A stretch of DNA of 64,000 nucleotides from an uncultured Acidobacteriota bacterium (GCA_963836075.1 CAWIIB010000009.1:322437-386436); one strand, 5' to 3'. Counted from the stretch's first letter, positions 2,537 through 63,170 are shown. Program-made: numbers and translations. Notes: generated from the sequence alone by a model not told the origin.

Positions 2537-3130
2537 GTGAAACGGATGATTGACGACGTGCTGAAAACAGGCGGCAGGAAGCCCCACGGCAGGATAAGCC
2601 AGCTGTTGCGCAAGCTCTTCCGCTGGCTGCTGACCCTGCGCGGGTCACCAGAGTCGATCGGCCTCGGTGTGGCCATCGGTATCTTCGTCGCCTGCTCCCC
2701 GCTGCTCGGCATCCACGTCCTGATGGCCATCATCCTCTCCACCCTGCTGGGTGCCAACCGGCCGGCAGCCCTGGCCACCAGCTTCCTCAACAACCCGGCC
2801 ACCTTCGTCCCGATCTATGTCCTCGAATACTGGGTGGGCAGCCTGTTTTGGCCCGGCCCGCCGGTGGCCCGGGTCAAGCAGGTCCTGGGTCAGCTGCTGG
2901 ACCAGCTCACCAGCACCGGTTTCTTCCACATCCGCGACCACTTCACCGCGGTGTTCGAGCTGGGCTGGGACGTCTTCATCCCGATGATGATCGGCGGGAC
3001 ACTGCTCGGTCTCCTTGCCGGCGGTGCGGCCTATATCCCCACCGTAGCCCTGGTGCGCAAGCTGCGCTTGAAGCGTCAGAAGAAGCGGGAGAGGCAAGCA
3101 GCGGCCAGGGGCGACCAGCCATCCTCCTGA
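2537..3130 (+). CDS. DUF2062-like small membrane protein.
   Basis: 197-aa ORF with hydrophobic segments (GLGVAIGIFVACSPLLGIHVLMAIILSTLLG); the family recollection is from memory. A GC hairpin (GCCCGCG-TC-GCGGGC, about 3163-3178) follows, before the convergent gene. Confidence 0.5.
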   Translation: MKRMIDDVLKTGGRKPHGRISQLLRKLFRWLLTLRGSPESIGLGVAIGIFVACSPLLGIHVLMAIILSTLLGANRPAALATSFLNNPATFVPIYVLEYWVGSLFWPGPPVARVKQVLGQLLDQLTSTGFFHIRDHFTAVFELGWDVFIPMMIGGTLLGLLAGGAAYIPTVALVRKLRLKRQKKRERQAAARGDQPSS

Positions 3131-46878: not shown

Positions 46879-49446
46879 ATGATTCATTCGGTAAAGACCT
46901 TCCGGGTGCAGCCGGCACTCCCCGACCCGGTCAAGGGGCTGGTTGAGATCGCCTACAACCTGCACTGGACCTGGCGCAAGGAAACGGTGGAACTGTTCCG
47001 CCGCCTCGACCGGGAGGCGTGGGAGACGTCGGGGCACAACCCGGTGCTGATGCTGGGGACGATGGATCAGCAGCGGCTCGACCGGCTCCCCGAAGACAAT
47101 GGCTTCATGGCTCACCTGGAGCGGGTCCACACCTACCTGCAGGGCTACCTCGAGGCTGAAACCTGGTACGAAAAACAGCACGGCAAACCGGCTGCGCCGC
47201 TGGTCGCCTATTTCTCCATGGAGTTCGGCCTCACCGACTGCCTGCCGATCTACTCGGGGGGCCTGGGCATCCTGGCCGGCGATCACCTGAAATCGGCTTC
47301 CGAGCTCGGCGTGCCGCTGGCCGGGGTGGGGTTGATGTATCGCCAGGGCTACTTCCAGCAGTACCTCAACGAGGACGGCTGGCAGCAGGAGTTCTACCCG
47401 GACAACGACTTCTACAACCTTCCGGTGCGGCTGGAGACCGGGGCCGACGGCGCCCCGGTCACCGTGGCGGTGCCGCTGGCCGACCGGGAAGTACACTGCC
47501 GGATCTGGCGCGCCGACGTGGGCCGGGTCCCGCTCTACCTTCTCGACACCGGCTTTCCGGCCAACAGCCCCGCCGACCGCAAGATCACGCTCCAGCTCTA
47601 TGGCGGGGACCAGGAAGCAAGGATCCAGCAGGAGATCGTCCTCGGCATCGGCGGGATGCGCGCCCTGCGGCAGCTCGGCGTCTGCCCCACCGTCTGCCAC
47701 ATGAACGAGGGCCACTCCGGGTTTCTCGCCCTGGAAAGGATCCTGCACCGCCGGGAGACCCTGAAGCTGAGCAACTGGGAGGCGTCGGAGCTGACCGGAT
47801 GCGGCACGCTGTTCACCACCCACACCCCCGTCCCGGCGGGGATCGACGAGTTTCCCCGGGAGCTGATGACCCGCTACTTCAAGCGCTTCTTCCCCGAGGA
47901 CCCCGATACGCTGGAGAGCTTTCTCTCCTGGGGCCGGCTGCACCGGCGGGCCAACCCCGACGAGCCGTTCAACATGGCGATCATGGCTCTGCGCTTCGCC
48001 GACTTCGCCAACGGCGTCAGCCGGCTCCACGGCCGGGTTTCGCGTAAGATGTGGCAACTGCTCTGGCCCGGGGTCCCCGAGGAGGAGGTCCCCATCGACC
48101 ACGTGACCAACGGCGTGCACATCAACTCCTGGATCTCCTCCGACATGGCCGGGCTTTTCGACCGCTACCTCGGCCCGGACTGGGAGCAGAAACCGGCGGA
48201 CCAGGAGATCTGGGCCGGGGTGGACGGGATCCCCGACGAGGAGCTGTGGCGGACCCACGAACGCCGCAGGGAGCGGCTGGTGGCCTTCACCCGGCGGCGG
48301 CTGCGCGAGCAGCTCCAGCGGCGCGGCGCACCGGCCCCGGAGATCGAGGCCGCCGGCGGCGCCCTGAATCACGACGCGTTGACCATCGGCTTCGCCCGCC
48401 GCTTCGCCACCTACAAGCGGGCCACACTGCTCCTGGAAGACGAAGCGCGGCTCTCGGCGCTGCTGCGCGACGAGGAGCGGCCGCTGCAGATCATCTTCGC
48501 CGGGAAGGCGCACCCCCGGGACGATGAAGGGAAGAACCTCATCCGGCGGATCATCGCCTTCGCCCGCAAGGACGCGATCCGCCGCCGGGTGGTGTTTCTC
48601 GAAAACTACGACATGAACGTGGCCCGCTACCTGGTCCAGGGGGTCGATGTCTGGCTCAACACCCCCCGGCGCCCCCTGGAGGCCTCGGGAACCTCGGGGA
48701 TGAAGGTCTGCGCCAACGGCGGTCTGAACCTGAGCATCCTCGACGGCTGGTGGGACGAGGGCTACGCCCCCTCCCGCGGCTGGTCCATTGGCCTGGGCGA
48801 GGAGTACGACGAATGGAAACAGCAGGATGCCGTGGAGAGCCGGTCGCTGTTCCACATCCTGGAAAGCGAACTGCTGCCGCTGTTCTACGAGCGGGGCACC
48901 GACGGGCTCCCCCGGCGCTGGCTGGCCAAGGTCAAAGCATCGATGCGGGAGCTCTCCCCGGCGTTCAGCGCCAACCGGATGGTCCGCGAGTATACCGAGC
49001 GGTTCTACGTGCCGGCGCAGGAACGCTGGCGCCGGATGGAGGTGGACAACGCACAGCCGGCACGGGACTTCGCCGCCTGGCGGGTGAGGGTGACCAAGGC
49101 CTGGGACGGGGTCAGAGTGGCTGGGGTCCAGGTTGATACACCGACGGAGATCGCGGTTGGAACCGAGCTCCGGGTGACCGCCGAAGTGGAGTTGGGCCAA
49201 CTCACCCCCGCCGACGTGGCGGTGGAAATCTACACCGGAAGCGTCGACAGCGAAGAGCAGATCGGATCCGGGACTGCCGTCGCCATGGCGGACCAGGGAC
49301 AGGGGAAACCCGGAACCTGGGGCTATGCCGGGACCATCGCCTGCACCGACACCGGGCTGCGGGGGCTCTCGGTGCGGATCCTGCCGCACCACGAGATGAT
49401 GGCCGGCAAGCACGACCTGGGGCTGATCCGCTGGGCCGACGCCTGA
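46879..49446 (+). CDS. glgP: Alpha-glucan (glycogen) phosphorylase, DUF3417 + GT35 type.
   Basis: N-terminal DUF3417 (…LVEIAYNLHWTWRKETVELFRRLD…). …EFGLTDCLPIYSGGLGILAGDHLKSASELGVPL…. PLP site …GTSGMKVCANGGLNLSILDGWW…. Confidence 0.85.
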   Translation: MIHSVKTFRVQPALPDPVKGLVEIAYNLHWTWRKETVELFRRLDREAWETSGHNPVLMLGTMDQQRLDRLPEDNGFMAHLERVHTYLQGYLEAETWYEKQHGKPAAPLVAYFSMEFGLTDCLPIYSGGLGILAGDHLKSASELGVPLAGVGLMYRQGYFQQYLNEDGWQQEFYPDNDFYNLPVRLETGADGAPVTVAVPLADREVHCRIWRADVGRVPLYLLDTGFPANSPADRKITLQLYGGDQEARIQQEIVLGIGGMRALRQLGVCPTVCHMNEGHSGFLALERILHRRETLKLSNWEASELTGCGTLFTTHTPVPAGIDEFPRELMTRYFKRFFPEDPDTLESFLSWGRLHRRANPDEPFNMAIMALRFADFANGVSRLHGRVSRKMWQLLWPGVPEEEVPIDHVTNGVHINSWISSDMAGLFDRYLGPDWEQKPADQEIWAGVDGIPDEELWRTHERRRERLVAFTRRRLREQLQRRGAPAPEIEAAGGALNHDALTIGFARRFATYKRATLLLEDEARLSALLRDEERPLQIIFAGKAHPRDDEGKNLIRRIIAFARKDAIRRRVVFLENYDMNVARYLVQGVDVWLNTPRRPLEASGTSGMKVCANGGLNLSILDGWWDEGYAPSRGWSIGLGEEYDEWKQQDAVESRSLFHILESELLPLFYERGTDGLPRRWLAKVKASMRELSPAFSANRMVREYTERFYVPAQERWRRMEVDNAQPARDFAAWRVRVTKAWDGVRVAGVQVDTPTEIAVGTELRVTAEVELGQLTPADVAVEIYTGSVDSEEQIGSGTAVAMADQGQGKPGTWGYAGTIACTDTGLRGLSVRILPHHEMMAGKHDLGLIRWADA

Positions 49447-49515
49447 CCCGGCCATTCACTGCCCGCCGGGGGAAGAGCTTACCAACACGAATAGCCCCGG
49501 GCAATGTGGACTGTT

Positions 49516-49599
49516 TGAAAATGTTGCAAGCCGCGGGTTACTTTCGTGCCCCATTCGTCATTAGTCGGAATGAGGGAACGGCCGCAAAGCGGCGGTCTG
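49516..49599 (+). promoter_or_regulatory. Copy B of an approximately 80-nt conserved upstream element. It contains a GGAAC-N16-TCTG sigmaE/ECF-like -35/-10 candidate at 49575-49599.
   Basis: TGAAAATGTT...CGGGTTACTTTCGTGCC..TCGTCATTAGTCGG..TGAGGGAAC..AGCGGCGG aligns closely with 57433-57514. It sits in the 225-bp gap between glgP and the YPYWY-repeat gene. Confidence 0.4.
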
Positions 49600-49670
49600 C
49601 TTTTCCGCCTTGATGAGCTTGAGTCTCATCTTCCCGGGCACCGCGCCCGGAAGCCCAGGAGAAAAGAGCG

Positions 49671-51224
49671 ATGATAAAATATGTGATGGGAATTCTGTTT
49701 CTCGCCTTGTTGCCCGTTTTCCCGCCGGCCCTGGCGGAAGATGTCCCGCCCCCGGCGGCCGGGGAAAGCGGCGACCTCCAGCTTCTGGAGGATGTCATCT
49801 ACCAGGACCAACAAGCCGTCGAGGCGCTGTCGCTCTACCCCCGGGAGGTTCGGGAGGCGATCTTCATCGTCGCGGCCAGCCCGGACGGCGTGGTGCGCGC
49901 CACCGGCATCCAGGCCCGGTCCAGCGCCAGCTTCGCCGGTCTGCTCTCCGATCTTTCCCAGGAGGAACAGAAGTCGTTCTGGGATCTCAGCCGCTACCCC
50001 GGCCTGATCGACCAGCTGGTGGCCGGCGGGGGGAAGTCGGCCGACGAGATCACCGCCATACTCGTCTCCTGGCCGAATGAGATCCGCGAGGCGGCGCGGT
50101 CATGTGCCGCCACCCATTTTTCCATCCTGGTCCAGGTTCGGCAGTTGAGGACCGCCGCCGAGCAGGCGTTCGATGCGGCCATCGCGGACTATCCAGCCGA
50201 GACCCGGGACGCCTACCGGATGCTGGTCGGCATGCCCGAGGTCTTCACCCTGCTCAACGAGAACATGTCGATGACCGTGCTGGTGGGAAGTCTCTACCGC
50301 CAGGACCCGGAGGCCCTGAAGGCCAGGATCGAGGAGCTGGGCCTGGAAGCGGCACGTAAGAACGCCGAGGCGCTGGAAGACTGGAAAAGGGAGCTGGCGG
50401 AAAACCCCGAGGCGCTCGAGGAACTGAAGGCCTCGGCCGAAGACTTTGCCGTGGAATACGGGGCCGATGCCGAAACCGTTTCCCAGCCGGTTTCCCAGAC
50501 CCGGGTCAACGTGGTCATCGAGCCCTACCCCTACTGGTACGGCTATCCCTACTGGTACCCGTATCCCTACTGGTATCCCTACCCCTACTGGTACTATTGG
50601 GGTTACTACTACGGCCCGGGCGACGCGATCGTCATCTGGGGCCCCCCGTCCTACTACTATACCTGGTGGTACTACCGCTATCCGTCTCACCACTACCGTT
50701 ATCCGCACCTCTCCGATTCGTTTCTCCGGCATCACCAGCGGCACCGGGATGTGAAGAACGGCTTCAACGACGTGGTGGGCCGGTGGAAATCGGACACCGG
50801 ACAGCGCATGGGCCCGGACTGGATGAAGGATGACGGACGCCGCGCCGAGCGTCTCAAGGAATACGGGCGGTTCGAGCGTGACTACAGCGCGGAATCCCGC
50901 GGCATCGCGGGGAGATCGATGTCCCGCAGCGACTACCTGAAGACCAACGGCGGCCGCTACCCGGACCTGCAGACACCGGCCGGCCAGGAGCGGCAGGGCC
51001 TCGGCAGCCGCCAACCCCCGACCGGGTTTCAGGGCGGGCCACCCGAAAGCAGGCTGGATACTCCGCCGCCTCCCCCCGGACCACCGGGGGATGGACGGGT
51101 GGTCATCACCAAGCCCAACGAGGCGCAGAAACTCAACGGGGCCAAGGACCATCACAAGAGCGGGTGGGACAGGAAACCCGGATCGAAACCACCGGCGAGC
51201 CCCCCGGCCGGCCGCCGGCGCTGA
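49671..51224 (+). CDS. Secreted protein with an extreme aromatic repeat (YPYWY)n and a Gly/Pro/Arg-rich tail. Possibly DUF3300-like.
   Basis: Signal peptide MIKYVMGILFLALLPVFPPALA. ...EPYPYWYGYPYWYPYPYWYPYPYWYYWGYYYGP...YYYTWWYYRYPSHHYRYP... The DUF3300 resemblance is from memory only. Confidence 0.55.
   Translation: MIKYVMGILFLALLPVFPPALAEDVPPPAAGESGDLQLLEDVIYQDQQAVEALSLYPREVREAIFIVAASPDGVVRATGIQARSSASFAGLLSDLSQEEQKSFWDLSRYPGLIDQLVAGGGKSADEITAILVSWPNEIREAARSCAATHFSILVQVRQLRTAAEQAFDAAIADYPAETRDAYRMLVGMPEVFTLLNENMSMTVLVGSLYRQDPEALKARIEELGLEAARKNAEALEDWKRELAENPEALEELKASAEDFAVEYGADAETVSQPVSQTRVNVVIEPYPYWYGYPYWYPYPYWYPYPYWYYWGYYYGPGDAIVIWGPPSYYYTWWYYRYPSHHYRYPHLSDSFLRHHQRHRDVKNGFNDVVGRWKSDTGQRMGPDWMKDDGRRAERLKEYGRFERDYSAESRGIAGRSMSRSDYLKTNGGRYPDLQTPAGQERQGLGSRQPPTGFQGGPPESRLDTPPPPPGPPGDGRVVITKPNEAQKLNGAKDHHKSGWDRKPGSKPPASPPAGRRR
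50524..50596 (+). repeat. In-frame tandem nucleotide repeat (15-18-nt units) encoding the YPYWY motif.
   Basis: tacccctactggtac / ggctatccctactggtac / ccgtatccctactggtat / ccctacccctactggtac, seen directly. Coding repeat, not CRISPR. Confidence 0.8.
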
Positions 51225-51261
51225 ATCACCGACCGAACCAGGATCATTGGAGGATTGACGG

Positions 51262-51849
51262 ATGAAAAAAACGATAGTGACTGCCGTAGCAGTGCTGGCG
51301 ATGATCAGCCTCGGCGCCTGCGCCACCCGCACGGTGCAGCGGGTGGACGAAACGCAGCAGGTCGATCTCAGCGGCCGCTGGAACGACACCGATTCACGGC
51401 TGGTGGCCGAGGAGATGATCAGCGACAGCCTCACCCGGGTCTGGATCACCGACTTTGCCGAGGCCAAGGGCAGAAAACCGACGGTGATCGTCGGCCTGGT
51501 GGGGAACAAGACCCACGAACTGATCAATACCGAAACCTTTACCAAGGACCTCGAGCGGGCTTTCATCAACTCGGGCAAGGTCAAGGTGGTCCAGGCCGCG
51601 GGCACCCGGGACGAACTGCGGGGCGAGCGGGCCGACCAGCAGAAATACGCATCCCCGGAAACGATGAAGAACTGGGGGCGGGAGAAGGGGGCCGACTTCA
51701 TGCTCCAGGGGACGGTGAACAGCATCGTCGACGAGTACAAGAAGGACAAGGTGGTCTACTACCAGGTCGACCTGGAGCTGTCCGACCTGGAATCCAACGA
51801 GAAGGTCTGGATCGGCGACAAGAAGATCAAGAAGCTGGTCAAGAACTGA
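51262..51849 (+). CDS. Lipoprotein, LpoB-like (penicillin-binding-protein activator family).
   Basis: Lipobox MISLGAC. Size and the ...KPTVIVGLVGNKT...FMLQGTVNSI... pattern are reminiscent of LpoB/TolB-N-like lipoproteins (from memory). Confidence 0.45.
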   Translation: MKKTIVTAVAVLAMISLGACATRTVQRVDETQQVDLSGRWNDTDSRLVAEEMISDSLTRVWITDFAEAKGRKPTVIVGLVGNKTHELINTETFTKDLERAFINSGKVKVVQAAGTRDELRGERADQQKYASPETMKNWGREKGADFMLQGTVNSIVDEYKKDKVVYYQVDLELSDLESNEKVWIGDKKIKKLVKN

Positions 51850-51925
51850 TCGATGCGCTTGACACCGATTCAACGCGCGGTTCCCGGCACCCTGACGGCC
51901 GGGGCCGCCAACGAACAGGCAGACC

Positions 51926-53351
51926 CATGTCGCTGAACCGTTTGGCCGTGACCGACCTCTCCCTTTTCGCGGCAACCGTCTGCCTGGTCCTGCTCGCTCC
52001 GGCCTGCGCCACCTACTACCAGAAGAACATCGGTTTCCACGAAGCGTTCGTCAAAGGCGACGTGGAGGAGGCCGCGCGGATCCTGGAAAAAGACAAGGGC
52101 GCGGCCAAAGACCGTAACCGGCTGCTCTTCTTCCTGCAGAAGGGCGTGGTGTTGCAGATGCTGCGCGACTACCCGGGGAGCAACGATTTCTTCGAGCAGG
52201 CCTACCTCTTCACCGAGGACGTCCAGCGCAACTACGGGGCCGAGGCCCTGGGCCTGCTCTCCAACCCGCAGGTCACGCCCTACCGCGGCGAAGACTTCGA
52301 GGTGGTCCAGATCCACTACTACAAGGCGCTCAACCACCTCTTCCAGGGGCGCTACGAAGAAGCCCAGGTGGAGTGCCGGCGGATCGACATCAAGCTCAAC
52401 CAGTTCAACGACCGCTATGAAAAGCGGAAGAACCGCTACAAGCGGGACGCCTTTGCGCGAAACCTGATGGGGATCATATTTGAGGCCGCGGGGGACGTGA
52501 ACAACGCCTTTGTCTCCTACCGCAACGCCTACGAGGCCTACCAGGAGGACTACGGGCCGAATTTCGGCGTGCCGACCCCGCTGCAGCTGAAGAAAGACCT
52601 GCTGCGCACGGCGTATCTCAACGGTTTCTCCGACGAGCTGCAGAAATATCAGTCCCTGTTCGGAATGACCCACGAACCGCGGGAGTCTCCGGGCGGGGAG
52701 CTGGTCTTCTTCTGGAACAACGGGCTGGGCCCGGTGAAGGACGAGTGGAGCGTCAACTTCTTCATCGTCAGGGGCCGGGGCGGCCTGGTGACCTTTGTCA
52801 ACGAAGAGCTGAAGCTGGCCCTCCCCTTCCCGCTGGGCGGTTCAGGATCGGGGTCCACGGATCTCGGCGACCTGAAATTCGTCAGGGTCGCCTTTCCCAA
52901 GTACCTGGTGCGCAAGCCCTACTACCGGACAGCGGAACTGGTGGCGGGCGGAAAGACCTTTCCGTTGGAAACAGGCCAGGACCTGAACGAAATCGCCTTA
53001 AAAACGTTGGAAGATCGGATGATCAGGGAGCTTGCCAAGTCACTGCTCCGGCTGGCGGTCAAACAGGCGGCGGAGCAGGCAGTGCGGAATAAGAACGAGA
53101 ATCTGGGCGCCCTGCTCTCCATCGCCCAGGCAATCTCGGAAAAGGCGGACACCCGGAACTGGCAAACCCTGCCCTACAGTATTTCCTATGCCCGGGTGCC
53201 GCTGCCCGCCGGCCAGAGCACGGTGAGCTTCAAGGCCTGGTCACCGAAAGAGAGCCAGGTCTACACGTCCGATTTCCAGTTCGACGGCCAGCCCGGGGTC
53301 AGTCAATTCTACCTGTTTCACAATCTGGAGAGTCTTCCCCTGGGTCAATAG
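51926..53351 (+). CDS. Lipoprotein with TPR-like helical repeats, unknown function.
   Basis: Lipobox LLAPACA. Helical repeat content (…EEAQVECRRIDIKL…AFVSYRNAYEAYQ…). Starts 75 nt after the LpoB-like gene. Confidence 0.45.
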
Positions 53352-53359
53352 AGGTGGCG

Positions 53360-54679
53360 TCAAAATCCGTAGGCGATTCCCAGACCGAAATAGTCGACGG
53401 TCAGATTGTAGAACTGGCCGTGGGGCATGTGCCCGTCGTAGTATTCGAGCAGCAGCTCGATGGAGTGGGCGTCCGAATAGGGGCTGCGGAAGCGCAGCCC
53501 GGCCTTGAGGTTGAAATCGAGGTCCCAGTCCGTTTCCTCCCACACCTTGAAACCCATGCCGGCCACCACCCGCGCCGTGCGCCAGCCGATGGGCGAGCCG
53601 CGGAAGTCGACCCCCCATTGGTACTGCTGCCATCCCAGCGGCGTGTCCGAGTGAAAGATGCCGGTGCCGCCGCCATAGAACCGCAGAAAGCGGATCTCCC
53701 GCGATACGAGTAGTTCCGCCGCCTCGTAGCTGAGGTTGATCCGTTTCTCGATTTTTCCCGGCTGCGGGTAAAGCAGGTACTCGTCGCCAAGATGAGAGGA
53801 CTGGTGATACGCCCGGAGCCGAGCGGACCATTTTCCTTCCCGCCAGGACAGCGGGAACCCGACGATGAAATCCGAATTGATCAGGTCCATTGAAGGGGCG
53901 TCGAGGTTGAAGAGCGAAAACACCGCGCCACTGATGCCCAGCTGAATACCGTCCCCCTCTCTCCTCGCCGGCCGCCGCAGCAGGCCGAAATCCATTCCGA
54001 AGCCCACCGAGGCCATGTTGAAATAGCCGTATTCGCTGTCGTATCGCTGCCAGGTAGTGTGAAATCTCGGCTGCTTCTGGTCGGCCAGCGGCGGGAAGAA
54101 CAGGTGCCCGGAAGGGAAATGGACCGTCTTGCGATCCGGCGGCGTTTCGGCCCACTCGAGCCAGGACTGCCAGCGGCCCGTTCCCTGGGCAGGAGCGCTC
54201 TCCGCCTCCGGCAGCGGTTCCGGGGGCATGATTTCCAGCCTGTTCGTCACCTCGGCCACGCCGGCAAAGGAAATCACCGTCGCGACGAGCCGATCGGCAA
54301 GTTCAACGCTTGGGACAGCACCGGTGAGTGTGACCTCCCCATCGCGAACCGTGACCTCGACCTGCTCCGCATCGAGGCCGTGGGCGAAGAGGAGCCATCC
54401 CTCGATGAACCCGCGCAGGTGCTCGTCATCCGGTGACGGCTGAGCGTCGCTCATTTCGGCATCGGCGGGACCGGCGGCCAGGAGTGCCGGGAAGAAATAG
54501 ATAAGCACACAGGACAGTATGATGAGACCCAATAGCCGCACAAAGACCGACCCGGGAACCATGGCCCGGCCAAAGCAGGGGCCGCCGGTTAGCGGGGTGC
54601 ATGATGACAGGTTGTTCAGTGCGTCGAGCATCGGCACCGTCCACCGTTCAGGCCACGATTTGATCGGCGCTCTCGGCAC
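53360..54679 (-). CDS. BON-domain + DUF1207-type outer-membrane protein.
   Basis: BON-like segment VTLTGAVPSVELADRLVATVISFAGVAEVTNRLEI. C-terminal beta-rich region ending ...GLGIAYGF (typical OMP terminal aromatic). The start is uncertain (GTG 54679 or an internal ATG). Confidence 0.5.
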   Translation of the reverse strand: MPRAPIKSWPERWTVPMLDALNNLSSCTPLTGGPCFGRAMVPGSVFVRLLGLIILSCVLIYFFPALLAAGPADAEMSDAQPSPDDEHLRGFIEGWLLFAHGLDAEQVEVTVRDGEVTLTGAVPSVELADRLVATVISFAGVAEVTNRLEIMPPEPLPEAESAPAQGTGRWQSWLEWAETPPDRKTVHFPSGHLFFPPLADQKQPRFHTTWQRYDSEYGYFNMASVGFGMDFGLLRRPARREGDGIQLGISGAVFSLFNLDAPSMDLINSDFIVGFPLSWREGKWSARLRAYHQSSHLGDEYLLYPQPGKIEKRINLSYEAAELLVSREIRFLRFYGGGTGIFHSDTPLGWQQYQWGVDFRGSPIGWRTARVVAGMGFKVWEETDWDLDFNLKAGLRFRSPYSDAHSIELLLEYYDGHMPHGQFYNLTVDYFGLGIAYGF

Positions 54680-54714
54680 CGATCCTTTTGAGGTGCTTCC
54701 GGTCGGGCGGCCGG

Positions 54715-55598
54715 TCAGTTCCGGACCGGCAGTCGGACCCTGACCTGGTTTCCGGGGGGTGTGAATTCCAGCGTCAGTGTGGCGGTGGCCATCAGCACCC
54801 CTCGCCCGTGGGTGTCGAACATCCTGGATTTGTCCAGCTTCATGTACCGCCGGAAATCGAATCCGGGACCTTCATCCCTTATTTTCACCTCCAGCAGGCG
54901 GTCGCGGCGCCGGACATTGATTGAGACCTTTTTCCTGCTGAATTCCGCCTGGGCCAATCGCCTGCGCCGTTCCTCGGTCAGCTTGCCCTCGGCCAGCAGG
55001 CGCCCCTTGTCCTCGTAGCCGATCCCCAGGTTGCCGTGCTCGATGGCGTTGACCAGCAGCTCCAACAGTCCGACACAGGCATCCGGGGTGCCGGCGGCGG
55101 AAGCGAGATGGACGGCGAGCAGTTCGGCTTCCCGGATCGTTTTCACATGGAAGGTCCCCGCCTCGAGGAGCCGGAAGGCATCCTGCGTCTCCTCGACCTT
55201 CTCGGCGAGCTTCCGTTTCAGCTCCAGGCTCTGGACCGCGGCCCGAATAATGGCCTCCAACTGTGGTTCATCAAACGGTTTGGTCAGAAAGTAATAAGCG
55301 CCGAATTCGATGGCCTTCCTGATGTTCTCGGGGGCGAACTCCGCCGAGTGCACCACGATTTCCACATCAGCCAGCGCCGGCTGATCTTTCATCCAGCCCA
55401 GCAGTTCCATCCCGTCAGCATCGGGCAGGATCCAGTCCATCAGTACGGCGGCAATGTCCGGGCCCTGCCGCCCCACGATTTCCCGGACCTGCTTTCCCGT
55501 CGACGCCGTTTCAAACCGGTAGTCATCATCCTCGAGCATGGACCGCAGGAGGTCGCCTTCGACGGGTTCATCGTCCACGATGAGAATGGTCAGCACGG
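54715..55598 (-). CDS. Response-regulator receiver fused to a GHKL (HATPase, RsbW-like) domain.
   Basis: GTG start with GGAGG. ILIVDDEP...VLMDWILPDADG (REC). ...LLELLVNAIEHGN...IRDEGPGFD...GRGV (N, G1, G2 boxes). Confidence 0.6.
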
Positions 55599-56444
55599 CT
55601 CTTCCTCCTGGTCGGAGAAAATGATGACCGAATCGATCAGCCTGGCGTTGGGCACGCTCCAGGATCCGCCCTCGCCGGTAAACGTCGTCTCCACCGGGCC
55701 AACCTGTTTCACCCGGCCGCGCCGTCCTTCCACCTCGACCCCGGCGCCCACGATGAGACTGCGCCGGAGATAGTGGCCGGCCAGCAAGCCCCGCACGATA
55801 TCCCGCGAGCCGAAGGCGAAGGCCCACCCCATCCCGATGCTGGCCGAGACCACGATCGCCGTGAAGACCATAATGAGGATCTGCGTGTCGATACCCAGCT
55901 GTTCGAGAGCCACGACGCCCACCATGATAACAATCATAATCTTGGCGGTCGTGCCCAACTGTTTGGCAAAGACCAGGTTGGCCGTGGCCGCGCCGGAAGC
56001 GACGAGATTACCGGCGAACTGGGCCAGCAGGACGCCGATGACGATCACCAGCACCGCACCGATCACGCTGGGCAGGAACTGGATCAGACGGTCGATGGTC
56101 ACGGTCACCGCGGATAGACCGAGGATCTCGGCCGCGGAAAGGAGAAAGGTCAGCATCAGGGTCCAGAAGAGGAGGCGCCCGATGATCGCCGAGGGAGTTT
56201 TATCGATGCCGGCGGTGTGGAGCATTTCCCTGATCCCGATCCGCTCCGAAACACGGTCAAATCCGAAACGGTCGAGCAGGCCCCGCGCCGCCGACTCCAC
56301 CAGCCTGGAAACGCCCCAGCCGGCGACGAGGACGAACACGGTCCCGAAAACACTGGGCAGGAAGGCGGCAACGGTGCTGCCGAGTTCGGAGAGCCAGGAG
56401 ATCAGGATTGTCTGCCAGGCGCTGAAGTTCAGCAGTTCATTCAT
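55590..56444 (-). CDS. MscS-like small channel with conserved-TM-helix (PF05552-type) repeats and a degenerate beta-domain.
   Basis: Repeated ...LPSVIGAVLVIVIGVLLA.. helices. C-terminal ...GAGVEVEGRRGRVKQVGPVETTF...SVPNARLIDSVI. Confidence 0.55.
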   Translation of the reverse strand: MNELLNFSAWQTILISWLSELGSTVAAFLPSVFGTVFVLVAGWGVSRLVESAARGLLDRFGFDRVSERIGIREMLHTAGIDKTPSAIIGRLLFWTLMLTFLLSAAEILGLSAVTVTIDRLIQFLPSVIGAVLVIVIGVLLAQFAGNLVASGAATANLVFAKQLGTTAKIMIVIMVGVVALEQLGIDTQILIMVFTAIVVSASIGMGWAFAFGSRDIVRGLLAGHYLRRSLIVGAGVEVEGRRGRVKQVGPVETTFTGEGGSWSVPNARLIDSVIIFSDQEEEPC

Positions 56445-56676
56445 GGTTCTCCTCCTCGATTACAAAAACACCACTGTAGAACAGGCCAAGGAGCGGTACG
56501 CAGCAACCCAGGACGAAAACCGATGAAAAGAATTCGAGAAGATCCCTCCCGGTGACCTCTGCATGGACACGTGCCATCGTCTGCCTGTAGAGGTCGGGAC
56601 GGGGAGCGGGTATGTGGTCATCGAGCCTGGAGAAAAATCTTCCGGCCTCTTCCTCGAGAACTGCTTTCTCGTCCAT
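56437..56676 (-). CDS. Putative anti-sigma factor (small, C-terminal single TM).
   Basis: 80 aa, starts 16 nt after the ECF sigma stop. C-terminal hydrophobic segment FFSSVFVLGCCVPLLGLFYSGVFV. Confidence 0.45.
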   Translation of the reverse strand: MDEKAVLEEEAGRFFSRLDDHIPAPRPDLYRQTMARVHAEVTGRDLLEFFSSVFVLGCCVPLLGLFYSGVFVIEEENHE

Positions 56677-56692
56677 TTCGTCTCCACTCCTT

Positions 56693-57289
56693 TCAGTCCG
56701 CTGGTTCCTCATCATCGAGCGCCGGGGCCGCTGTGCCGGGCCCGCCGGCGGCATGTTGCCGCAGCTGCTCGACGGCCCGCACCACCCGCATTTTCACTGC
56801 CGACTCCTTCATCCCCAGAACGTCGGCTATTTCGGCGTATCCCCACCCTTCGGAAAAACGCATCACCACCGCCACCCGTGTCTCGGGTGCAAGAACGTCC
56901 ATCATCTTTTCCAGCGTCAAGCGATCCTCGTTGTTCGACTCCCGGTTGCCGGCCCAACGGCCGCCCTGGTCCTCGAATGCGCCCCGGCGGCGCTGCTCCT
57001 GGTGACGGCGCCGCAGAACAAGCCGGCAGGCATTGATCACGATCGTATTCAGCCAATGCTCAAACGGCTTCTCGAAACGGAAGCGGGGAAGTGAGCGAAA
57101 GACGCTGAGGAAGCTGTCCTGGACCACGTCCTCGGCGTCCTCCCTGGTGCGCAGGATCCGGTAGGCCCGGCGGTAGACCCGGGCCTGGTGCCGCGTAACC
57201 AGGGCGTCGAAGGCAGCGGTGGCGTAGGGCAACTCCTTCTGCGCCCGTTCGACGAGTGCCCGATCAGCATCTGTGGTGTGATCGCTCAC
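56693..57289 (-). CDS. ECF-type RNA polymerase sigma factor (sigma-70 regions 2 and 4).
   Basis: ...AFDALVTRHQARVYRRAYRILRTREDAEDVVQDSFLSVFRSL... (region 2). ...RVAVVMRFSEGWGYAEIADVLGMKESAVKMRVVRA (region 4 HTH). Confidence 0.75.
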   Translation of the reverse strand: MSDHTTDADRALVERAQKELPYATAAFDALVTRHQARVYRRAYRILRTREDAEDVVQDSFLSVFRSLPRFRFEKPFEHWLNTIVINACRLVLRRRHQEQRRRGAFEDQGGRWAGNRESNNEDRLTLEKMMDVLAPETRVAVVMRFSEGWGYAEIADVLGMKESAVKMRVVRAVEQLRQHAAGGPGTAAPALDDEEPAD

Positions 57290-57432
57290 GTCTCTCCGCG
57301 GGTTTCCCTCCGCCGAGCGGCCGTTAAAGTTGTCATCCACTACAGTAAAAGCAGGCCAGGGCGGAAAACGTCACATAACACCGGACTTCGCGTCGCGGCC
57401 TTGAACCGAAGCACGCCGCCATTGGACAACCT

Positions 57433-57514
57433 GAAAACAAATTCCACTCCCGGGGTTACTTTCTTGTCCGGTCCGTCATTAGTCAGGTGAGGGAAGCATG
57501 CCGGATAGCGGCTG
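57433..57514 (+). promoter_or_regulatory. Copy A of the approximately 80-nt conserved element, in the divergent region between the ECF sigma operon and the OMP gene.
   Basis: TGAAAACAAATTCC..CGGGGTTACTTTCTTGTCC..TCCGTCATTAGTCAGG.TGAGGGAAG..AGCGGCTG. More than 75% identical to 49516-49599 over about 80 nt. Confidence 0.4.
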
Positions 57515-57671
57515 CGCACCCGTGGATTAAAACATGCAGACAAAAGCACAGTCAAACGTGGGATCCGCCTGTGAAGAGGTGATCACCGGTGATCCCAGTC
57601 AAGGAGCGTTCTGCTCCGACCGGTAGTGGTGAACTGCACGCAATGCGACCTGGAGTCGCAAAAAAGGAGAA

Positions 57672-59285
57672 TTGCTGATGAAGAGCAACACGAATCGGAC
57701 CAAGCGGTATCTCAATTTAGCGACCACCCTGGTCCTACTGCTCCTGTTCCCGGGTATGACCCCGGTGCTGCAGGCAGGGGAGGACTCGGATTTCTACAAA
57801 TGGACCGCACCCTCGGTGGAGGATCAGCTGGCCGCCGACCAGACCCCCGTCCCGACAGATGCGGGCGCGATTTTCGTCCCGGCGATGACCGACGGGAACG
57901 ATGAGCCCCTGGTTCTCGTGTTCCAGAACGAGCAGAAAGTGGCTTCGGGCAAGACCGGGGCGAGGATTATCGTCAGCCCCGGCGCCTGCGACATCCGTGT
58001 GGGCTCAGGTGCGGTTAAGCAGATGATGACCTATGGGGTCGAAGTGGCCGCAGGCGAAACAACCGTCGTGGACTGCACCTGGGGCGGCCTGAAGGTCAGT
58101 GTCGTTGACGAGAACAACATCCCCCATCGGGGTACATACGAGGTCATCCGCGCGGAGGGCCGGGAGCTCTTCGGCATCGGCTACGGCGCCGACACCCTGC
58201 AGGCCGAGCCGCTGGGCACCTGGCTGCTCGGTCCCGGCCTCTACCGCATCGTCCGCACCGGTGAGACCTACCGGGCCAGAGAGGATTTCGCCACCGTGGT
58301 TCTCCCCGAGGGCGGGCTGGTCCACTTCAAACTGGTCATCAACCCCGACACCGGCGAATTTCGTGGCGCCGGCGTGGCCCTGCCTGACGAACTGGGAATC
58401 GTGGATGAGGCGGTGAGCAACTGGGCCAAATCGATGACCCTCGGCGTGGCGGCGTCCCTCAGCGACTCGTCCGATGTGGTCGGATCTCCGAACCAGTCCA
58501 GCTACTCGGGAGTCGGATACTTCGACACCTATCTGACCTACAAGAACGGACCCCATTTCGGATCCGCCATCCTGGAACTGGAGGAGGGTTTCCTGAGGGT
58601 CGACCCGGAAACCAGCGAGTCCCTGCCGACGCAGAAAACCCAGGACCGGTTGCGTGCCGACCTCCTCTACACCTGGTTTGTCAAGGAGTGGGTCGGCCCC
58701 TATGCTCGCGCCGGGTTACTGACCAACATCTTTCCCTCGGAAACCCTGACCACCGAGGACCAGTTCATCGCTTACAACCGGCTTGACGGTACCAGAGACG
58801 TTATCTTCGTTCCGGCGAACAACAACTACCGGACGTCGGACAGCTTCGGCAACCTGCGGTTCCGCGAGGGTGTGGGCGCCAACTTCCGCCTCTTCAGAAA
58901 CCAGCACGTCACCCTGAACTGGCGGCTCGGCGTCGGACTGAGACAAAACGTGTTCAACGGCCTGTATGTCAACGAGGACGATGCGGCAACCGAAGAGATC
59001 GACCTCTACCAGGTGGACAGCTTCAACCAGGAGGGTCTCGAGACCACCATCACCGGGAACGTGCGGATCACCCGGTATCTCTCGTATATCACCGACCTGG
59101 AAGTGTTCGCCGATTTCTCCGACATGGGCGAGCCGACCGTTGACTGGCGTAACAATCTCAGCCTGCGCCTGACGCGGTATCTGTCGCTGGACTACGTGCT
59201 CGACATTCTCAGGTTCCCGCAGGTTGTGGACCAGACCCAGACGAGCCAGAGCCTGCTGCTGCGGTTCTCGTTCGACATTATCTAA
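57672..59285 (+). CDS. Secreted beta-rich protein, probably an outer-membrane beta-barrel, unknown function.
   Basis: Signal peptide ...TLVLLLLFPGMTPVLQAG. Alternating hydrophobic patterns. C-terminal ...LLLRFSFDII. Confidence 0.5.
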   Translation: MLMKSNTNRTKRYLNLATTLVLLLLFPGMTPVLQAGEDSDFYKWTAPSVEDQLAADQTPVPTDAGAIFVPAMTDGNDEPLVLVFQNEQKVASGKTGARIIVSPGACDIRVGSGAVKQMMTYGVEVAAGETTVVDCTWGGLKVSVVDENNIPHRGTYEVIRAEGRELFGIGYGADTLQAEPLGTWLLGPGLYRIVRTGETYRAREDFATVVLPEGGLVHFKLVINPDTGEFRGAGVALPDELGIVDEAVSNWAKSMTLGVAASLSDSSDVVGSPNQSSYSGVGYFDTYLTYKNGPHFGSAILELEEGFLRVDPETSESLPTQKTQDRLRADLLYTWFVKEWVGPYARAGLLTNIFPSETLTTEDQFIAYNRLDGTRDVIFVPANNNYRTSDSFGNLRFREGVGANFRLFRNQHVTLNWRLGVGLRQNVFNGLYVNEDDAATEEIDLYQVDSFNQEGLETTITGNVRITRYLSYITDLEVFADFSDMGEPTVDWRNNLSLRLTRYLSLDYVLDILRFPQVVDQTQTSQSLLLRFSFDII

Positions 59286-59400
59286 GCCGATGGCTGATGA
59301 CTGCCGGTCGGCGGAGCGGCAACGCTTCCCGTCCGGCGGCTCGGTCGGCCGGTTGTGACCGGGTGCAGCCGGGATGATTACTGATAAGGGGGAAAAAATC

Positions 59401-60879
59401 ATGAATGAAATTATCAATCTGCTGAAAGAATCGGTTGGCGGATACCTTCCGCAACTGCTCGGCGCCGTGGCCATTCTGGTCGTCGGCTGGCTGATGGCCC
59501 TGGTCATTGCCGGGGCGATCCGTGGGTTAGTAAGGCGCACCGGGATAGACGACAAACTGGTCACCTGGTTTGGCGAGGAAAAATCGGGCGGCAAGGCGCC
59601 GGATTTCGCCGTCGGCATCGGCCGGGGCGTGTTCTGGTTGATCATGATCCTGGTATTGACTGCCGTCCTGCAGGTCCTCGACCTGACCCTGACCACGGCC
59701 CCGCTGAACAATTTCCTGTCCCAGGTTTTCCAGTTCCTGCCCCAGCTCGTGGGGGCGGCCGTGCTGGCCCTCATCGCCTGGATCACCGCGGTCACCCTGC
59801 GGCTGCTGCTGAGCAAGGCGCTGAAGGCGGCAAAGGTGGATGAAAAAATCTGGCGCCAGCTGAGCGACGGGGAACCGTCCGGGCAGGTGTCGCGGACCAT
59901 CGCCGATGCCGCGTACTGGCTGGTGCTGCTGCTCTTCCTGCCGGCCGTGCTGGGTGCCCTGAAGTTGCAGGGCCTTCTCCAGCCGGTGCAGGGCATGATG
60001 AACAGGATTCTCGGCTTTCTGCCGAACCTGCTCGCCGCCGCCCTGATCGCCCTGGTCGGCTGGTTCGTGGCCCGCCTGGTCCGGCGGATTGTGGAAAACC
60101 TGGCGGGAACGGCCGGCGGGGATCGGCTCGGTCAACAGATCGGACTGCCGCAGCTGTCCCGGATCATCGGCCTGGTGGTCTACATCCTGATCCTCGTTCC
60201 GGTGCTCATCGCCGCACTCAACGCCCTGGCGCTGGAGGCGGTCACCCGGCCGGCCAGCCTGATGCTGACCAAGATCCTCGCCGCCTTCCCGTCCATCTTT
60301 GCCGCCGCGGTGGTCGTCCTGATCGCCTACGCGGTGGGGCGGCTGGTTTCCGGACTGGTCACCGAACTGCTCACCGGCATCGGGTTCAATACCATCCTGG
60401 TCCGGCTGGGCATCGGCCGGGAACCGGAGGAGGGTCGGCGTACGCCGTCCGAGATCGTCGGCTACCTGGCACTGGTGGCGATCATGCTCTTTGGCGCTCT
60501 CGAAGCCTCCGGTCTGCTGGGCTTCGAAGTCCTCTCGGACCTGACGACCGATGCCACCGTGTTCGGCGGGCACATTCTCGTGGGGCTGGTTATTTTCGGG
60601 ATCGGTCTCTACCTGGCCAACCTGGCCGCTGAGGCCATCCAGTCCAGCGGTGTGGCGCAGTCCCGTCTTCTCTCCGTCACCGCCCGTATGGCCATCCTGG
60701 TCCTGGCCGGCGCCATGTCGCTGCGGCACATGGGCCTGGCCGACGAGATTGTCAGTCTGGCCTTTGCCCTGATCGTCGGCGCCGTGGCGGTGGCCGCAGC
60801 TGTGGCCTTCGGCATCGGCGGCCGGGACCTTGCCGCGAAGAAGCTGGCCCAGTGGTTCAAGGAAAAACCATCGGTTTGA
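59401..60879 (+). CDS. Membrane protein with four conserved-TM-helix (MscS-associated PF05552-like) repeats, no beta-domain.
   Basis: Four repeats of ...LP.L.GA...L..GW..A....R (e.g. LPQLLGAVAILVVGWLMALVIAGAIRGLV; LPQLVGAAVLALIAWITAVTLRLLL; LPNLLAAALIALVGWFVARLVRRIV). Confidence 0.5.
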   Translation: MNEIINLLKESVGGYLPQLLGAVAILVVGWLMALVIAGAIRGLVRRTGIDDKLVTWFGEEKSGGKAPDFAVGIGRGVFWLIMILVLTAVLQVLDLTLTTAPLNNFLSQVFQFLPQLVGAAVLALIAWITAVTLRLLLSKALKAAKVDEKIWRQLSDGEPSGQVSRTIADAAYWLVLLLFLPAVLGALKLQGLLQPVQGMMNRILGFLPNLLAAALIALVGWFVARLVRRIVENLAGTAGGDRLGQQIGLPQLSRIIGLVVYILILVPVLIAALNALALEAVTRPASLMLTKILAAFPSIFAAAVVVLIAYAVGRLVSGLVTELLTGIGFNTILVRLGIGREPEEGRRTPSEIVGYLALVAIMLFGALEASGLLGFEVLSDLTTDATVFGGHILVGLVIFGIGLYLANLAAEAIQSSGVAQSRLLSVTARMAILVLAGAMSLRHMGLADEIVSLAFALIVGAVAVAAAVAFGIGGRDLAAKKLAQWFKEKPSV

Positions 60880-62342: not shown

Positions 62343-63170
62343 ATGGAATTTGAAAACTGGAGCTCGGCCCTGAAGAACATGGCGGAACAGCTCTGGAACG
62401 GCTTTCTGGCATACCTGCCGCAATTGGCCCTCGTCATCGTATTGCTGCTGGCCGGGTGGGCCCTGGGCCGGCTGGCCCGCAGGCTGGTCAGCAGGCTCAT
62501 TCTGCGTCACGCCCGCGGCCGAAAAGGGCCCGCCATGGAGCAGGCGCTGCAAGAATCCGGGGTGGACCGGATGGCCGCCGAGATTTTCGGGCGGATCGCT
62601 TTCTGGTTCGTGCTGATCTTCTTCGCCGCCCTGGCCGGAGAAGTTCTCGGACTGGCCGTGGTTTCCCGTGGTCTCGCCGTGCTGATCCTCTACCTGCCAC
62701 GCGTACTGGCCGCGGGGCTGATCGCCTTCGCCGGTCTGCTGATGAGCAACCTGGCCCGGGACGCGGTGATGACGCTGAGCAGTTCGAACCGTTTCAGTGG
62801 GAAGGTTCCGGCACAACTGGTCCGCTACGCCATCCTGCTGCTCACCACCGTCGTGGCCCTGGATCAGATCGGGATCGACAGCACGCTGCTGATCCTGGCC
62901 ACGGGAATCGTGCTTGCCGCGCTGCTGGGCAGCGCGACGCTCGCCGTCGGTCTCGGCGCGCGGACCGAGGTGGGCAATATCATCGCCCTGCACTATCTGG
63001 CCAAGTCCTATTCGGTGGGCCAGCGAATCCGGATCGGGGATGTGGAAGGCCGCATCGTGGAGCTCGGCACCACCGGAGTGGTCCTGGACACCGCACAGGG
63101 ACGGACAACCATCCCCGGCAAGGAATTCAGCACGCGCAGCTCCTGTCTGCTCGACGAGACGGCGCCATGA
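62343..63170 (+). CDS. MscS-like small channel (paralog of 55590-56444).
   Basis: TM-helix repeats plus C-terminal ...GQRIRIGDVEGRIVELGTTGVVLDTAQGRTTIPGKEF (MscS beta-domain-like). Confidence 0.55.
   Translation: MEFENWSSALKNMAEQLWNGFLAYLPQLALVIVLLLAGWALGRLARRLVSRLILRHARGRKGPAMEQALQESGVDRMAAEIFGRIAFWFVLIFFAALAGEVLGLAVVSRGLAVLILYLPRVLAAGLIAFAGLLMSNLARDAVMTLSSSNRFSGKVPAQLVRYAILLLTTVVALDQIGIDSTLLILATGIVLAALLGSATLAVGLGARTEVGNIIALHYLAKSYSVGQRIRIGDVEGRIVELGTTGVVLDTAQGRTTIPGKEFSTRSSCLLDETAP

Follow-up and report, generated by a model that had tools for sequence, protein, structure and literature searches.

Two copies of a two-box intergenic element, a candidate extracytoplasmic function sigma factor promoter region, precede envelope-protein operons in an uncultured Acidobacteriota bacterium

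We analyzed a 64,000-nucleotide (nt) stretch of DNA from an uncultured Acidobacteriota bacterium (GCA_963836075.1 CAWIIB010000009.1:322437-386436, hereafter referred to as the window) that contains two copies of a non-coding element of ~110 nt, each located upstream of an operon that encodes exported envelope proteins. The copies are named by their position as the 49.5-kb and 57.4-kb copies (copies B and A, respectively, of an original prediction made from the sequence alone). The 57.4-kb copy lies in a region that is divergent from a gene encoding an extracytoplasmic function (ECF) sigma factor, an arrangement that had been predicted and that is supported by Pfam. Here, Pfam matches and open reading frame (ORF) translation define a minus-strand operon (55590-57289) that contains the ECF sigma gene (56693-57289; Sigma70_r2/r4_2, i.e. 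sigma2 and sigma4 only), a gene for a small single-transmembrane (TM) protein that is anti-sigma-like (about 56437-56715), and a gene for a CmpX-like MS_channel_1st_1 protein (55590-56444). The best NCBIfam match to the sigma factor is SigX (PRK09640) at 106 bits, which is below the 194-bit cut-off, and the locus is therefore called SigX-like rather than SigX. On the plus strand, the operon downstream of the element (57678-60879; Pfam and NCBIfam) encodes a beta-barrel-like outer membrane protein (OMP; 57678-59285) with a signal peptide and weak Pfam matches to OMP_b-brl and DUF481, in which an OmpA domain was not found, and a four-repeat MS_channel_1st_1 protein (59374-60879) with a strong Pfam match and an NCBIfam msc score of 337 bits. 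The 49.5-kb copy is positioned between a glucan phosphorylase gene that ends at 49446 and a plus-strand operon recognized from its ORFs (49671-53351). This operon encodes a DUF3300-like secreted protein with YPYWY repeats (49671-51224; its homologues carry PF11737/DUF3300), an LpoB-like lipoprotein (51262-51849; NCBIfam LpoB, 103 bits, below the 110.55 cut-off) and a further lipoprotein (51936-53351). The first proteins of both downstream operons have signal-peptide-like N-termini, in agreement with the original prediction.

The repeat itself is confirmed. A profile built from the copies and searched with nhmmer delimits full homologous spans at 49493-49603 (E=4e-26) and 57409-57520 (E=6e-35), both on the plus strand, and finds orthologous copies of the latter in the related loci L005, L006 and L010. 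When the two full intergenic regions were aligned by the Smith-Waterman method, positions 49531-49593 paired with 57450-57512 at a score of 53, as compared to a mean of 17.8 (standard deviation 2.3, maximum 34) for shuffled sequences. Identity is ~76% in this best local stretch and, by hand count, ~73% across the 84- and 82-nt spans first described (49516-49599 and 57433-57514); both segments are present at these coordinates, but the reported identity of more than 75% is slightly generous. Similarly, a placement of 70-160 nt upstream of the genes is true of the 49.5-kb copy, which lies 72-155 nt from the ATG at 49671, but not of the 57.4-kb copy, which lies 164-245 nt from the ATG at 57678. 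The central claim, that a non-coding cis element is shared in the same orientation by two envelope-protein operons, is borne out. At the center of the alignment is a 32-nt core pattern, GGGTTACTTTCNNGNCCNNTNCGTCATTAGTC, that matches exactly at 49535-49566 and 57453-57484. No third site was found in the window when up to 3 mismatches were allowed, and the pattern had 0 matches in 100 shuffles. True extra copies were likewise absent from GTDB-representative genomes and JGI metagenomes, where only chance matches in coding or unrelated DNA were recovered, the core pattern had zero matches in viral contig and plasmid collections, and in ~138 kb of relatives' loci the element was present only as orthologous copies; these scans did not extend to the source genome outside the window.

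The core has the form GGGTTACTTTC-N10-CGTCATTAGTC, in which two 11-nt boxes are far better conserved than their surroundings. Box 1 (GGGTTACTTTC; 49535-49545 and 57453-57463, plus strand) is the same at 11/11 positions in both window copies, L006 and L010. Box 2 (CGTCATTAGTC; 49556-49566 and 57474-57484, plus strand) is the same at 11/11 positions in both window copies and carries a single substitution in L010 (CGTCATTGGTC); the CGTCATT sequence with which it begins (49556-49562 and 57474-57480) is identical in the copies and kept in L006 and L010. Hand counts on the alignment show that the boxes are identical at 22/22 positions between the copies, as compared to 5/10 in the spacer and ~63% (39/62 columns) at all aligned positions outside the boxes. 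At that level of divergence the chance that all 22 box positions survive is 0.63^22, or ~4e-5, which argues for selection in both copies. The gap between the boxes is exactly 10 nt in both window copies, L006 and L010, and indels occur on both sides of the core with none between the boxes. Comparison of the orthologues yields the same picture: core identity is 91-94% in L006 and L010 (94% for the 57.4-kb core against L010), versus 73-89% at four-fold degenerate sites of the flanking genes and 57-58% in the distal leader (58% for the unconstrained leader part against L010). Within the element, the orthologues differ most 3' of box 2, where identity to L010 is 72%. Upstream of the boxes, an A/T-rich block, AAAACAAATTCCACTC (57434-57449, plus strand; approximately -51 to -36 relative to the proposed transcription start), is invariant in the window, L006 and L010, whereas the 49.5-kb copy retains only part of it; the block could act like an UP element or contribute to a divergent promoter of the sigma operon. 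To judge from these alignments, strict constraint covers only 2 x 11 nt. Since the boxes are kept at a fixed spacing while the sequence between and around them is free to vary, the pattern indicates a bipartite protein-binding site in DNA rather than a functional RNA.

The related loci also indicate how the two copies arose. The 57.4-kb copy has counterparts at the corresponding position in L005, which is from the same strain, and in two loci whose sigma factors are 93% (L006) and 82% (L010) identical, and the comparison indicates that it is the ancestral copy, kept in two related lineages. L006 has no OMP gene; there, the element with its leader stands directly before the channel gene, whose product is 99% identical. 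Alignment of L006 1-730 with window 57290-59401 points to the OMP gene as a recent gain or loss inside the operon. Conversely, an OMP orthologue that is 80% identical and has no nearby sigma gene lacks the element. The L006 layout and the element-less OMP orthologue together indicate that the element travels with the sigma locus and not with the OMP gene. The history of the 49.5-kb copy is different. In L014, which comes from the same metagenome-assembled genome as L010 (GCA_032127265.1), the orthologue of the YPYWY-repeat gene (81% identical) has another gene 45 nt upstream, and homology to the window begins only at 49634. In L019, whose phosphorylase is at least 90% identical, homology stops exactly at the stop codon at 49446 and the next gene encodes a patatin. 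The intervening 187 nt (49447-49633) therefore form a lineage-specific junction to which homology in the relatives is absent from both sides. Within this junction, which marks a rearrangement, the copied element is flanked by 46 nt and 30 nt. Because the element lies inside a lineage-specific junction, the 49.5-kb copy is a paralogous duplicate, and the similarity is longer than a promoter needs because the two copies share a common descent. The original prediction had taken this length as a sign of a composite regulatory element; common descent explains it better, as only 2 x 11 nt are strictly constrained.

We consider it moderately probable that the element is an ECF-type promoter region, probably for the adjacent SigX-like sigma factor, and that its duplication brought a second operon under the control of this sigma factor. 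Box 1 (GGGTTAC, together with TTTC) would then be the -35 element, box 2 (CGTCATT, together with AGTC) the -10 element, and the 10 variable bases between the boxes the spacer. Transcription would start ~6-8 nt after CGTC, near 49566-49568 and 57484-57486, and an A/T-rich TGAAAA patch at approximately -45 to -55 would act as an UP-like element. The region would originally have stood before the operon for the OMP and mechanosensitive channel and later have been copied into the rearrangement junction before the DUF3300-like/LpoB operon, with the result that one stress-responsive sigma factor would control two envelope operons. CGTC is the commonest -10 motif of ECF promoters, and the GG of GGGTTAC lies 21 nt 5' of CGTC, in the same register as in the E. 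coli sigmaE promoters of rpoE (P2) and degP (GGAACTT-N14-xxTC). The core ends 104 nt and 193 nt before the start codons of the 49.5-kb and 57.4-kb operons, respectively, and is on the same strand as these genes, both operons encode exported envelope proteins, and a promoter scan found no sigma-70-like promoter in either intergenic region. The only regulator gene nearby is that of the ECF sigma factor; a response regulator encoded at 54715-55827 lacks a DNA-binding domain according to Pfam. An operon of the same three genes (for a sigma factor, a small TM protein and a CmpX-like protein) is also present in the more distant loci L011/L012, L013 and L016, and the related sigma genes in L011, L013 and L016 have CGTC 15-53 nt before their start codons. 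At ~2660-2700 (minus strand) of L013, in the region divergent from the related sigma locus, we observed CGTCATTC, a 7/8 match to the -10 sequence of the element, CGTCATTA; this site faces a PG_binding_1 gene, and a matching -35 box was not found. A locus whose sigma factor is 47% identical (P0132) was rejected as an orthologue, as it has a different gene context.

Other promoter motifs are also present in the two regions. The sigmaE-type promoter originally proposed, GGAAC-N16-TCTG at 49575-49599, and its weaker counterpart in the 57.4-kb copy, GGAAG-N16-TGCGC, are present as described. Compared with the RpoE/AlgU consensus, GAACTT-N16/17-TCTNN (PMC7641640), the stronger of them reads GGAACGG-N14-TCTG and its spacer is 2 nt short. 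Moreover, its -10 is not conserved, as TCTG is replaced by TGCGC in the other window copy and by CGGTC in L006 and has no equivalent in L010, and the constrained bases are the two boxes, which lie upstream of it. In sum, an ECF or envelope-stress control region shared by the two operons, one of which adjoins the ECF sigma operon, remains the most likely explanation, but the promoter and the RNA leader first proposed for it (the latter is considered below) are not supported. A second conserved block, AAAACAT-N16-TCAAA (57529-57556, plus strand), matches the RpoE/AlgU consensus, and both L006 (AGAACAT-N16-TCAAA) and L010 preserve it. This block lies outside the shared element, has no counterpart in the 49.5-kb copy, and could provide the OMP/channel operon with a further stress promoter that is independent of the first. 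Promoters of the sigma-54, sigma-32 and sigma-70 types were rejected on the basis of their spacing or hexamers, as were the pairs TGGAC...TTGCA and TTGAAA...CCCCAT, each of which has the wrong spacing and occurs in one copy only.

Several observations weigh against an ECF-type promoter. The in-register -35 reads GTT where ECF promoters usually carry AAC, and if TAC is instead aligned to AAC, a spacer of 14 nt is left, as compared to 16±1. Read on the minus strand, box 1 is GTAACCC, a canonical ECF -35, and the assignment of the strand is accordingly not secure. With 11 conserved bases, each box exceeds what most ECF promoters need, and the block at 57529-57556 is a second, better-fitting motif of the RpoE type downstream at the 57.4-kb locus. 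Among the distant sigma loci L011, L013 and L016, whose sigma factors are 54-55% identical (L015 was also compared), no common -35 was found, and a convincing copy of the motif was not found upstream of the sigma gene itself. The autoregulatory candidate there, CGGTTCA-N14-AGTC (57408-57384), matches at 7/14 positions, which is no better than chance. A relaxed motif, [CG]GGTT-N17-GTC, has 5 matches in the window, including matches in coding DNA at a rate expected by chance, and was discarded as too weak to define a regulon. Finally, the promoter consensus of SigX itself is not precisely defined (PMC7641640), being described in the literature as undefined or displayed in figures only, so that the boxes have no motif with which they can be directly compared.

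Some of these features would be expected if the boxes were instead an operator or activator site of a non-sigma regulator, for example a dimer that touches two sites two helical turns apart, a reading that we regard as rather unlikely. The real promoters would then lie downstream, at GGGAAC-N15-GTCT in the 49.5-kb copy and at AAAACAT-N16-TCAAA at the 57.4-kb locus, where the motif is of the RpoE type and conserved. The 11-nt boxes are spaced 21 nt from center to center and hence lie on the same face of the helix, the conserved sequence exceeds what a typical ECF promoter needs, and box 1 is non-canonical as a -35. However, inspection shows no repeat relationship, direct or inverted, between the boxes, and the neighborhood encodes no transcription factor besides the sigma factor; the response regulator at 54715-55827 is not equipped with a DNA-binding domain. 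In addition, the distance from the core to the candidate promoter is ~8 nt in one case and ~45 nt in the other, which misfits a position-dependent activator.

The canonical sequence on the opposite strand raises the question of whether the 57.4-kb copy is a back-to-back module, in which box 1, read on the minus strand (GTAACCC-N16-GTTTT), would serve the sigma operon as its autoregulatory promoter, while the 49.5-kb copy would have preserved just the plus-strand function, be it that of a promoter or of an operator. In favor of such a module, GTAAC matches the canonical ECF -35, the alignments show GTAAC-N16-GTTTT(C/A) in the window as well as in L006 and L010, and the arrangement would explain why AAAACAAATTCCACTC is invariant in three lineages but decayed at 49.5 kb, where a gene on that side is lacking. 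Nevertheless, we consider this arrangement improbable, as it leaves the perfectly conserved box 2 without a role and the related sigma genes of L011, L013 and L016 are not preceded by such a motif. Furthermore, in the 49.5-kb copy 2 nt are deleted between the minus-strand -35 and -10 and the would-be promoter would read into the phosphorylase gene from its 3' end, so that the conservation of this copy cannot be explained in this way.

It is similarly doubtful that the element is a repeat dispersed among intergenic regions, or that a segmental duplication simply left a relic, devoid of a regulatory role, at the 49.5-kb site. The position of the 49.5-kb copy in a lineage-specific junction that is missing from relatives on both sides would be in keeping with such an origin, but the contrast between boxes that are identical at 22/22 positions and flanks that are ~63% identical points to selection acting on each of them. 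On inspection, neither terminal inverted repeats nor target-site duplications were seen, and the copies counted were two in 64 kb, only orthologous ones in the ~138 kb from relatives, and chance matches at most in public collections.

Least probable of all is that the element is transcribed and acts as RNA, with a shared 5' leader or a short attenuator regulating the two operons once transcription has been initiated. Folding, covariation and Rfam lend no support to the structured 5' leader that had been suggested: the fold z-scores of four sequences (+0.02, -0.45, +0.62 and -0.77) are no better than those of shuffles, the RNAalifold covariation term is unfavorable (+0.44, with one compensatory pair, in an alignment of four sequences that affords low power), and Rfam returned nothing relevant at the gathering threshold or at E<=10. 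The similarity does run ~35 nt beyond box 2 (TGAGGGAA, then a GC hairpin), a small hairpin, UCAUU/RRUGA, is formable in all four sequences, and a hairpin that resembles a terminator, with a T-run, occurs in the 49.5-kb copy; yet the part 3' of box 2 is the least conserved among orthologues, the GC hairpin changes register between sequences, and the 57.4-kb copy has neither a terminator-like site nor a T-run. The terminator-like feature of the 49.5-kb copy, a GC hairpin followed by TGCTTTTCC, was located by a terminator scan at 49580-49597 (plus strand; 49580-49606 with wider bounds) and would lie ~15-40 nt after the start of transcription, where it could be an attenuator. A small RNA gene was rejected, as this hairpin occurs in one copy only and the product would be ~40 nt. 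Two small ORFs were also set aside: for one that begins in (A/G)TGAGGGAA, the frame, stop codon and substitutions are not conserved in L006, and for another, read from a Shine-Dalgarno-like GAGGG followed by ATG, the ATG is lost in L006.

Further features lie close to the two loci. A second GC hairpin near the 49.5-kb copy, CTTCCCGGGC-ACCG-CGCCCGGAAG (49630-49663), is located just 5' of the AGGAGAA ribosome-binding site of the YPYWY-repeat gene and is kept in L014 (~655-690) despite the different sequence further upstream. Within that gene, an 18-nt tandem repeat at 50523-50612 encodes the PYPYWY units of the DUF3300-like protein, in which a Tyr/Trp/Pro-rich core is followed by a basic low-complexity tail. 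Between the two copies, a minus-strand gene at 53360-54679 encodes a BON + DUF1207 protein that adds to an island of envelope/osmotic-stress-type genes. The response regulator gene at 54715-55827 (minus strand) is directly 3' of the sigma operon and encodes a receiver domain fused to an RsbW/SpoIIAB-like HATPase_c_2 domain, its product being a possible partner-switching kinase. As listed, this ORF overlaps the CmpX-like gene, and its true start is probably later. Three MS_channel_1st_1 paralogues are present within 8 kb around the sigma gene (55590-56444, 59374-60879 and 62343-63170), one of them inside the sigma operon.

Of the studied sigma factors, the closest parallel is P. aeruginosa SigX, the sole studied member of ECF102, which is co-encoded with CmpX, CfrX and OprF (PMC7826278) and is reported or predicted to control the neighboring cmpX and oprF (PMC7826278; Todor et al. 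bioRxiv 10.1101/2020.06.23.168245; PMC8871633). With this parallel in mind, the promoter reading can be extended, more tentatively than the reading itself. The ~110-nt region may be a self-contained promoter cassette of a SigX-like, channel-associated and possibly mechanosensing ECF sigma factor, which was copied into the junction and there recruited the DUF3300-like/LpoB peptidoglycan-associated operon. This would be growth of a regulon by promoter duplication, in which GGGTTAC-N14-CGTCATT would represent an unusual specificity, in a sigma clade that still lacks a defined promoter consensus, for a -35 without AAC. Such an arrangement is ordinary regulon wiring and not a new class of RNA or a new kind of element. 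If an ECF-type promoter is indeed duplicated here, the two copies and their orthologues provide a clean target promoter, amenable to experiment, of a SigX/ECF102-like sigma factor; sigma factors of this type are tied to mechanosensitive-channel proteins, and even the model SigX is without a defined promoter consensus (PMC7641640). The comparison with relatives would in that case capture how an operon was wired into an envelope-stress regulon, namely by the copying of a whole promoter region to a new junction.

The element shares with known ECF target promoters two boxes whose distance is fixed, the downstream one with CGTC, and a location before envelope genes, beside an operon for an ECF sigma factor and an anti-sigma-like protein, with no sigma-70 promoter. 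It differs from them in that GGGTTAC has no in-register AAC, in that its 11-nt boxes are longer than usual, and in that ~110 nt are common to the copies through duplication and not through independent convergence. At the level of gene content, the locus resembles cmaX-cfrX-cmpX-sigX-oprF of P. aeruginosa in combining an ECF sigma factor with a CmpX-like protein (PF05552), a small putative anti-sigma factor and an OMP gene. Here, however, the order is sigma factor, small TM protein and channel, the OMP gene is divergent, and the OMP is a DUF481-like barrel, whereas OprF belongs to the OmpA family. As compared to RpoE/AlgU promoters, the block at 57529-57556 fits and is conserved in relatives, but it lies outside the shared element. 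An additional AlgU-dependent promoter has also been reported for oprF, which the block upstream of the OMP/channel operon would parallel.

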